The translations under genes and the position numbers were made by a program. From a virus (lineage: Duplodnaviria; Heunggongvirae; Uroviricota; Caudoviricetes), in the IMG/VR virus record IMGVR_UViG_2751185961_000005, positions 1 to 9,987 of that record: a stretch of 9,987 nucleotides of DNA; one strand, 5' to 3'. The notes under the pieces were generated by a model. The model had not been told where the DNA came from, searched no databases, and worked only from the letters and a program-made list of their open reading frames with translations. The first letter of the stretch is position 1, and each line of letters begins with the position of its first letter. Below are positions 8,167 to 8,241 of this stretch, in pieces.

Positions 8167-8241
8167 TTCCAATAGTGAATAGTTAGTTGAAAGGTATGCG
8201 TGGAAACGCATATGGCCTTAGTTGGTCAGATATCTTGGGAC

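Follow-up and report, generated by a model that had tools for sequence, protein, structure and literature searches.

A conserved stem-loop between nutR and cII of a lambdoid prophage, probably part of the tR1 region of the pR transcript

What does a short, perfect inverted repeat do between nutR and cII, and in which of the two convergent transcripts that cross it does it act? The DNA that raises this question is a stretch of 9,987 nucleotides from a Caudoviricetes record, called the window below at its full length. The region around the repeat is a lambdoid immunity and replication region in which the rightward direction corresponds to the window minus strand. On that strand the order is cro, boxA, boxB, hairpin and cII, and cI lies alongside on the plus strand (Table 1). 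Positions 8195-8212 read tatgcgt-ggaa-acgcata on the plus strand and TATGCGT-TTCC-ACGCATA on the minus strand, 18 bases that form a 7-bp stem without a mismatch and a 4-nt loop. Both the hairpin, with its UUCC loop on the minus strand, and its location in the nutR-cII spacer had been described in a sequence-only reading of the window. They are confirmed by the letters of the two strands and by the positions of boxB, the dyad and cII.

Table 1. Features of the immunity region around the dyad, in window coordinates
Feature	Position	Strand	Basis or remark
cI	8623-9270	+	HTH and Peptidase_S24
cro, 72 aa	8296-8514	-	Pfam HTH_3; length equal to that of VT1-Sakai cro
nutR boxA, CGCTCTTTG / CGCUCUUUG	8287-8279	-	homology; boxA is annotated in mEpX1 and mEp234
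nut spacer hairpin, GGAC-AUUC-GUCC	8271-8260	-	centroid fold
nutR boxB hairpin, TCGCTGAAAAGCGA / UCGCUGAAAAGCGA	8255-8242	-	homologue labeled boxB in mEp234 and nutR in 24B
extended stem-loop	8191..8219	-	AAGG 8219-8216 pairs with CCUU 8194-8191; MFE, centroid and best hairpin
dyad	8195..8212	-	rightward pR RNA UAUGCGU-UUCC-ACGCAUA; sequence, folds, H-19B identity
A/C/U-rich tract, UCAACUAACUAUUCAC	8175..8190	-	immediately 3' of the hairpin; from alignments
predicted pRE	8134..8166	+	coordinates carried over from the mEp234 annotation
-10 hexamer TAATAT of predicted pRE	8161-8166	+	transfer from mEp234
CII-binding repeats TTGC-N6-TTGT of predicted pRE	8134-8147	+	transfer from mEp234
cII, 98 aa	7860-8156	-	Pfam Phage_CII, 115 bits

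Read as rightward RNA, the spacer contains more C (27-33%) than G (16-20%), a composition that agrees with a rut site and by itself is not diagnostic of one. We presume the C-over-G region around boxA to be the rut region. Between the hairpin and the cII ATG the G content falls to 8%. The small hairpin in the nut spacer would be the second hairpin of a NUT site of the H-19B type. On the opposite strand, the predicted pRE would start at about 8173, and positions +23 to +40, approximately, of the leftward RNA would then be the dyad. A sigma-70 consensus scan did not call this promoter, as expected of one that depends on an activator. Beside cI, an open reading frame of 162 aa (9267-9755, plus strand) overlaps the stop codon of cI (ATGA) and occupies the place that rexA has in lambda.

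Elsewhere in the window, two stretches of the minus strand match Rfam models at gathering level, C4 antisense RNA at 2085-2169 (74 bits) and isrK at 2195-2272 (76 bits). Both stand immediately upstream of an antirepressor ORF (ORF6N/P22_AR_C) and a Rha/KilAC (ANT) ORF, at 1317-2030 and 520-1248 of the same strand. The arrangement looks like an antirepressor module controlled by antisense RNA, of the P1/P7 c4 type or the Gifsy isrK type. Two HNH_3 endonuclease ORFs (NUMOD4+HNH; HNH+AP2) flank and overlap a NinB ORF (2488-3090, 3489-4157 and 3083-3574, all minus strand), and are probably homing-endonuclease insertions in the nin region.

The dyad stem is present in both the minimum free energy and the centroid structures that ViennaRNA predicts for the two strands. 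In the rightward RNA a lower stem, AAGG with CCUU, extends it across a 3-nt asymmetric internal loop. Lower stems that are analogous but different in sequence occur in lambda (GUG/CAU) and in the Salmonella phage g341c (GGUU/AGCC). Judged from the window alone, the dyad exceeds chance expectation only modestly. The window holds 11 perfect 7-bp stems with loops of 3-8 nt, at about 9 distinct sites, compared with 3.8 +/- 2.3 in first-order Markov simulations of it, and a random 139-nt spacer would hold one or more of them with a probability of about 0.04. Between -62 and -22 relative to cII, a segment of 41 nt, the best hairpin has a folding energy of -8.2 kcal/mol against -2.0 +/- 1.8 for dinucleotide shuffles (z -3.4, p about 0.01). 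The 151-nt rightward fold as a whole is ordinary (z -0.78). Because these odds are modest, the reality of the dyad rests on the comparative evidence given below.

An intrinsic terminator was defined as a GC-rich stem followed by at least five U within 8 nt, and the dyad lacks such a tract. The minus-strand sequence after the dyad is CCTTTCAACTAAC, in which the longest T run is 3. The terminator scan called it on neither strand, the tails being CCUUUCAACU rightward and UGGCCUUAGU leftward. An intrinsic terminator is therefore ruled out, in agreement with the sequence-only reading, which had denied the hairpin that role. The sole intrinsic-terminator-like site between 7800 and 8700 lies on the plus strand at 7884-7911, opposite the 3' end of cII. 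There a 12-bp stem is followed by TTTTTTATT, and the site is the counterpart of the lambda and P22 oop RNA terminator. Rfam covariance models gave no match over 8100-8350, either at the gathering threshold or at E <= 10. By eye, the elemental pause consensus (G-10, Y-1, G+1) is unmatched 3' of the hairpin. A resemblance to the DnaA box, also judged by eye, covers 6 of 9 positions and is not conserved across types.

The hairpin recurs, identical and in the same place, in H-19B, 933W, HK97 and mEp234. Window positions 8214-8186, the hairpin with its immediate flanks, equal the H-19B cro-cII spacer base for base, with a few base differences in the wider spacer. The spacer matches, over 80% or more of its length, 156 phage records, among them 933W, VT2-Sakai, HK97, mEp234 and BP-4795, and at 90% identity or more it is found in 1039 of 5426 complete Escherichia coli genomes. 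Among the tallied occurrences, for which the loci were fetched, the window-type hairpin is identical in 150 of 169. The nutR-tR1 module is thus very common, Shiga-toxin phages 933W and H-19B included. Two GenBank records already name the equivalent hairpin: g341c labels it 'putative tR', and VT1-Sakai 'putative rho-dependent terminator for pR transcript'.

The window resembles different phages in cro and in nutR-tR1. The cro gene and operators (8296-8560) are about 89% identical to those of VT1-Sakai, mEpX1 and PDP110P1. In those three phages nutR-tR1 is of the phage-21 type, with another boxB and another hairpin, whereas window positions 8157-8295 are of the 933W/H-19B type. The left junction of the mosaic falls between the cro stop codon and a point just past boxA. 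Since cro and cI are of the VT1-Sakai/mEpX1 type, unlike those of H-19B, and nutR-tR1 is of the H-19B type, the window is a mosaic that carries an H-19B-type nutR-tR1 module.

To place the dyad among lambdoid phages in general, we used cII as the anchor to extract the cro-cII spacers of GTDB genomes, IMG/VR contigs and GenBank phages. The comparative set holds 19 representatives of the N/nut type, taken from Escherichia, Salmonella, Hafnia, Tatumella, Atlantibacter, Superficieibacter, Pseudescherichia, Symbiopectobacterium, Yersinia and Edwardsiella, and about 11 unrelated stems occur among them. In all 19, the segment from -62 to -22 has its best hairpin ending 28-38 nt before the cII ATG. 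Shuffle tests gave p <= 0.04 in 16 of these 19 spacers, with a mean z of -2.9. Three 41-nt control segments inside cII, treated by the same procedure, gave mean z values of -0.3 to -0.8. Conservation in related phages, which the sequence-only reading had proposed as a check, is borne out both by the identical copies and by the hairpins of unrelated sequence.

Within the group that aligns in register (the window type, lambda, the g341c type and natural variants), RNAalifold recovered the 7-bp stem. Among the lambda, window and g341c types, two of its seven pairs have changed on both sides in a compensatory way, one from G-C to A-U and one from U-A to C-G. In this three-type group the bases pair in 97% of cells, and 4 of 500 shuffles reached its covariation score. 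When all types were aligned with MAFFT, the lambda/window/g341c and P22/CUS-3 groups fell into different registers. Formal pair counting was therefore confined to the first group, and the case across types is made by the shuffle tests and control segments. P22, CUS-3 and the Superficieibacter group share the 3' motif GCGCA, with the stem in another register. An outer pair has been lost there and an inner one gained, a turnover in which a hairpin is preserved.

Across the types the loops vary from 3 to 7 nt and are unrelated in sequence (UUUAUU in lambda, CAGU in g341c, CAACGA in P22), and the stems contain bulges and G-U pairs. The comparison adds to the known picture a stem-loop that compensatory turnover has kept, with a fixed spacing to cII and pRE, across phages of several genera. 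This suggests that the dyad, which stands outside the usual list of lambda tR1 essentials, is under selection.

Some spacers depart from the common form. In two IMG/VR contigs a 13-nt tandem duplication, ACCTTTCAACTAT ACCTTTCAACTAAC, follows the same hairpin immediately on its 3' side, some 50 to 25 nt upstream from cII (L043 and L048), and lengthens the otherwise tightly kept distance from hairpin to cII. A Salmonella contig from IMG/VR (L274) is the sole one of 87 contigs with the AACTAACTATTAACTACAGGAA motif that has no upstream hairpin; in its place stands a direct repeat, GCGCTTTTAT...GCGCTTTTAT.

The position of the hairpin is kept more closely than its sequence. From its 3' end to the ATG the distance averages 32.3 nt with an SD of 2.9, whereas the gap from boxB to the hairpin runs from 5 to about 27 nt with an SD of 9.5 (one value of 43 reflects a misidentified boxB). 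The difference indicates that the hairpin is positioned by the block of cII, its ribosome-binding site and pRE, not by nutR. We considered HK022 as a control that lacks the hairpin and rejected it. This phage has putR in place of N/nut and no short hairpin, but its large second putR stem-loop ends at -39. In the spacers of the HK022 type (HK022 29400-29560, listed as L316, and L007, L068 and L082), putR replaces both nutR and tR1. They have the last 27 nt before cII in common with N/nut spacers of the L028 type, and the recombination junction is exactly the 3' edge of the L028 hairpin.

Taken with the genetic context, these observations are best read on the rightward transcript, although the tests of strand do not decide between the two. 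We conclude that the dyad is probably the stem-loop of the tR1 region of the pR transcript, where it would act as a pause or 3'-end-forming structure within the zone of Rho termination. A tR1-like Rho-dependent site had been among the suggestions of the sequence-only reading, and it is now the best supported one, through the identity with H-19B, the homology to the lambda dyad and the tR labels in GenBank. The anatomy fits, with a C-over-G, rut-like region at nutR, a hairpin downstream, a G-poor tract and no U-run. The hairpin stands 30-90 nt past the nut/rut region, and termination zones are typically found 60-90 nt downstream of rut sites (PMC3526286). In the prediction of Rho terminators, hairpins downstream of rut are treated as pause sites for RNA polymerase (PMC6407284). 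In E. coli, the 3' ends that Rho-dependent transcripts show at steady state lie just past stem-loops that guard against PNPase and RNase II (PMC6061677).

Several points weigh against this assignment. The published experiments that we found assign no function to this particular hairpin. The lambda annotations give rutA and rutB as the essentials of tR1, not the downstream dyad, and Chen and Richardson reportedly came to the same list of essential elements in 1987. The folding energies do not favor the rightward strand. The tight spacing to the ATG could merely reflect constraint on the pRE and ribosome-binding sequences that lie between.

By analogy with its relatives, the module could work as follows. 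RNA polymerase would pass cro and nutR, and the C-rich, G-poor RNA around boxA, the nut spacer and boxB would load Rho. Some 30-60 nt later the hairpin would fold in the nascent RNA as the polymerase reaches the G-poor tract UCAACUAAC, with a proposed pause roughly 10 nt beyond the stem. The geometry of the tract at 8190-8175 is compatible with a paused RNA 3' end about 10-12 nt past the hairpin. In the absence of N, Rho would release the transcript in this G-poor zone and the hairpin would stay behind as the stable, exonuclease-resistant 3' end of the cro message; N acting at boxB would allow read-through into cII. A polymerase paused near 8186-8182 would also cover the predicted start of pRE and reach its -10 hexamer, which would explain why the distance between hairpin and cII is conserved. 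For this phage we infer the pausing, the site of Rho release, the protection of the 3' end and the occlusion of pRE from such parallels.

The last of these steps allows a variant of the scheme. The hairpin might be kept mainly as a positioning device that parks pR polymerases on the convergent pRE, and not for termination as such. We regard this emphasis as doubtful, if worth keeping in view. If it were true, pause-enhanced occlusion of pRE would be a general, conserved feature of the lysis-lysogeny decision in lambdoid phages, and the spacing data hint that it may be.

A strand-specific alternative starts from the leftward RNA. The pRE transcript could be the functional molecule, its GGAA-looped hairpin altering stability, processing or early elongation, and the location of the dyad within the predicted pRE RNA makes such a role geometrically possible. 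The spacing, tighter to the cII start and hence to pRE than to boxB, would suit it. So would several folding measures: the leftward hairpin of the window is the more stable (-10.3 against -8.2 kcal/mol for the rightward one), the 151-nt leftward fold has a z of -2.1 against -0.78, and 9 of the 19 types fold better leftward. The other 10 types favor the rightward strand. G-U pairs total 11 on the rightward strand and 15 on the leftward. Natural stem substitutions are of six kinds, of which five keep a G-U pair on the rightward RNA only and are A-C mismatches on the leftward one, while the kind at the terminal pair keeps it on the leftward only; this preservation of rightward pairing is suggestive, and with six variant kinds it is not significant. 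The sequence-only reading had also pointed to a GNRA-type loop in the leftward transcript. GGAA does fit GNRA in this type, but because loops differ across the other types in sequence, length and strand (one type bears a GNRA loop, GAAA, on the rightward strand), a conserved GNRA loop is ruled out. Under the rules for RNase E and RppH, a hairpin about 20 nt inside the 5' end is too distant for 5'-terminal protection, and the dyad lies that far in. The literature that we found describes no role of the dyad in pRE RNA. We therefore consider the leftward RNA a distinctly unlikely seat of the function. A role there could also hold besides one in tR1, and the element could be bifunctional, folding in the pRE RNA too.

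The remaining explanations differ in what they leave unaccounted for. The hairpin could be without effect on pausing or Rho release and work only on the terminated cro mRNA, whose stable 3' end it would set by blocking 3'-to-5' exonucleases. Its anatomy is like that of protective stem-loops without a U-tract. Such a barrier would leave unexplained why the 3' edge strays by no more than +/-3 nt from a set distance to cII and pRE, its work could be done already by the boxB hairpin upstream, and rut lies upstream here, whereas in E. coli the rut sites are downstream of the protective stem-loops; on balance we think this explanation unlikely. Still less probable is that the structure tunes translation of cII, by shielding the ribosome-binding site from upstream pairing or by working with an adjacent IHF site. 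In lambda, RNA structure and an IHF site just upstream of the ribosome-binding site are proposed to influence tR1 read-through as well as cII translation (PMC5869508), and in the window the hairpin ends about 15-20 nt before a GGAAA Shine-Dalgarno-like sequence. The lambda structure said to occlude the ribosome-binding site is, however, a different stem (38339-38360), the IHF core has two mismatches by eye at the homologous position in the window and is not conserved across types, and the fold predicts no pairing between the dyad and the ribosome-binding site. Least credible of all is that the dyad is a DNA palindrome for a dimeric protein or a chance palindrome without function. At 18 bp it is a perfect palindrome, a kind of sequence that folds equally well in either strand, and the window-only probability of about 0.04 is not extreme. 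Yet about 11 unrelated stems are found at one position in phages whose cII and host factors are closely related, a pattern that fits selection on pairing and not on a protein recognition sequence. Loop lengths differ as well, the bulges and G-U pairs of the stems count in RNA only, and chance is excluded by the control segments inside cII.

The tR1 assignment is best seen against the systems it resembles, one of which is the H-19B/933W nutR-tR1, the model terminator of the Sen laboratory. The H-19B segment is a Rho-dependent terminator in vivo and in vitro, with about 4% read-through in vivo; rho mutations and N relieve the termination, and the segment 'behaves similar to nutR/TR1 of lambda' (PMC1950744, PMC3526286). 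The dyad and its flanks, which the published fragments may include, are the same in the window. The two-hairpin NUT architecture is common to both, and boxB differs in the loop alone (GAAAA in the window, GACAAA in H-19B). Rho dependence and suppression by N have been shown for the H-19B segment, and for this exact prophage they are predicted from homology.

Lambda tR1 has the same order of parts: cro, boxA, boxB flanked by rut, a dyad, an A/C/U-rich tract and the cII ribosome-binding site. The lambda dyad, GTATGCA-TTTATT-TGCATAC at 38305-38324, follows directly after rutA-boxB-rutB and precedes ATTCAATCAATTG and cII. In lambda and the window alike, the 3' end of the perfect 7-bp core lies at -36 from cII, the stem core is UAUGC/GCAUA, and a U-tract is lacking. 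Pair 6 of the stem is G-C in the window and A-U in lambda, pair 7 is present in the window and absent from lambda, the loop is UUCC in the one and UUUAUU in the other, and the tails read UCAACUAAC and UCAAUCAA, respectively. The tract 3' of the window hairpin matches in position the lambda AUUCAAUCAAUUG, which holds the lambda IHF site; the IHF core is perfect there, unlike its imperfect counterpart in the window. This IHF site ahead of the lambda cII ribosome-binding site has been described (PMC5869508). The dyad is the counterpart of the tR1 stem-loop, an already described element of lambda-like control regions, and the gain for annotation is that the cro-cII spacer of this prophage can be labeled as nutR followed by a tR1 dyad.

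The parallels extend to pausing and 3'-end formation. The sites of lambda tR1 lie at about +290, +310 and +340 from the pR start, which would put the middle one about 9-13 nt past the dyad. Their spacing agrees with the description of three pause and termination sites 20 and 30 nt apart (PMC5001618). The papers cited here do not ascribe the lambda pauses to the hairpin. As in his-type, hairpin-stabilized pausing, which NusA enhances, a nascent hairpin stands upstream of a G-poor tract, and the pause here is predicted from geometry. The E. coli stem-loops at Rho-dependent 3' ends are likewise stable stems without a U-rich tract, inside a Rho termination region, but in that set rut is just downstream of the stem-loop, whereas in the window the known rut region is upstream (PMC6061677). 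A functional parallel is offered by lambda pRE, whose occlusion is enhanced by pausing (Palmer et al. 2009): according to the accounts in PMC6593788 and PMC5001618, polymerases paused at tR1 occlude this promoter about 5.5-fold. The geometry is alike in the window, where a polymerase paused past the hairpin would sit over the +1 and -10 of the predicted pRE.
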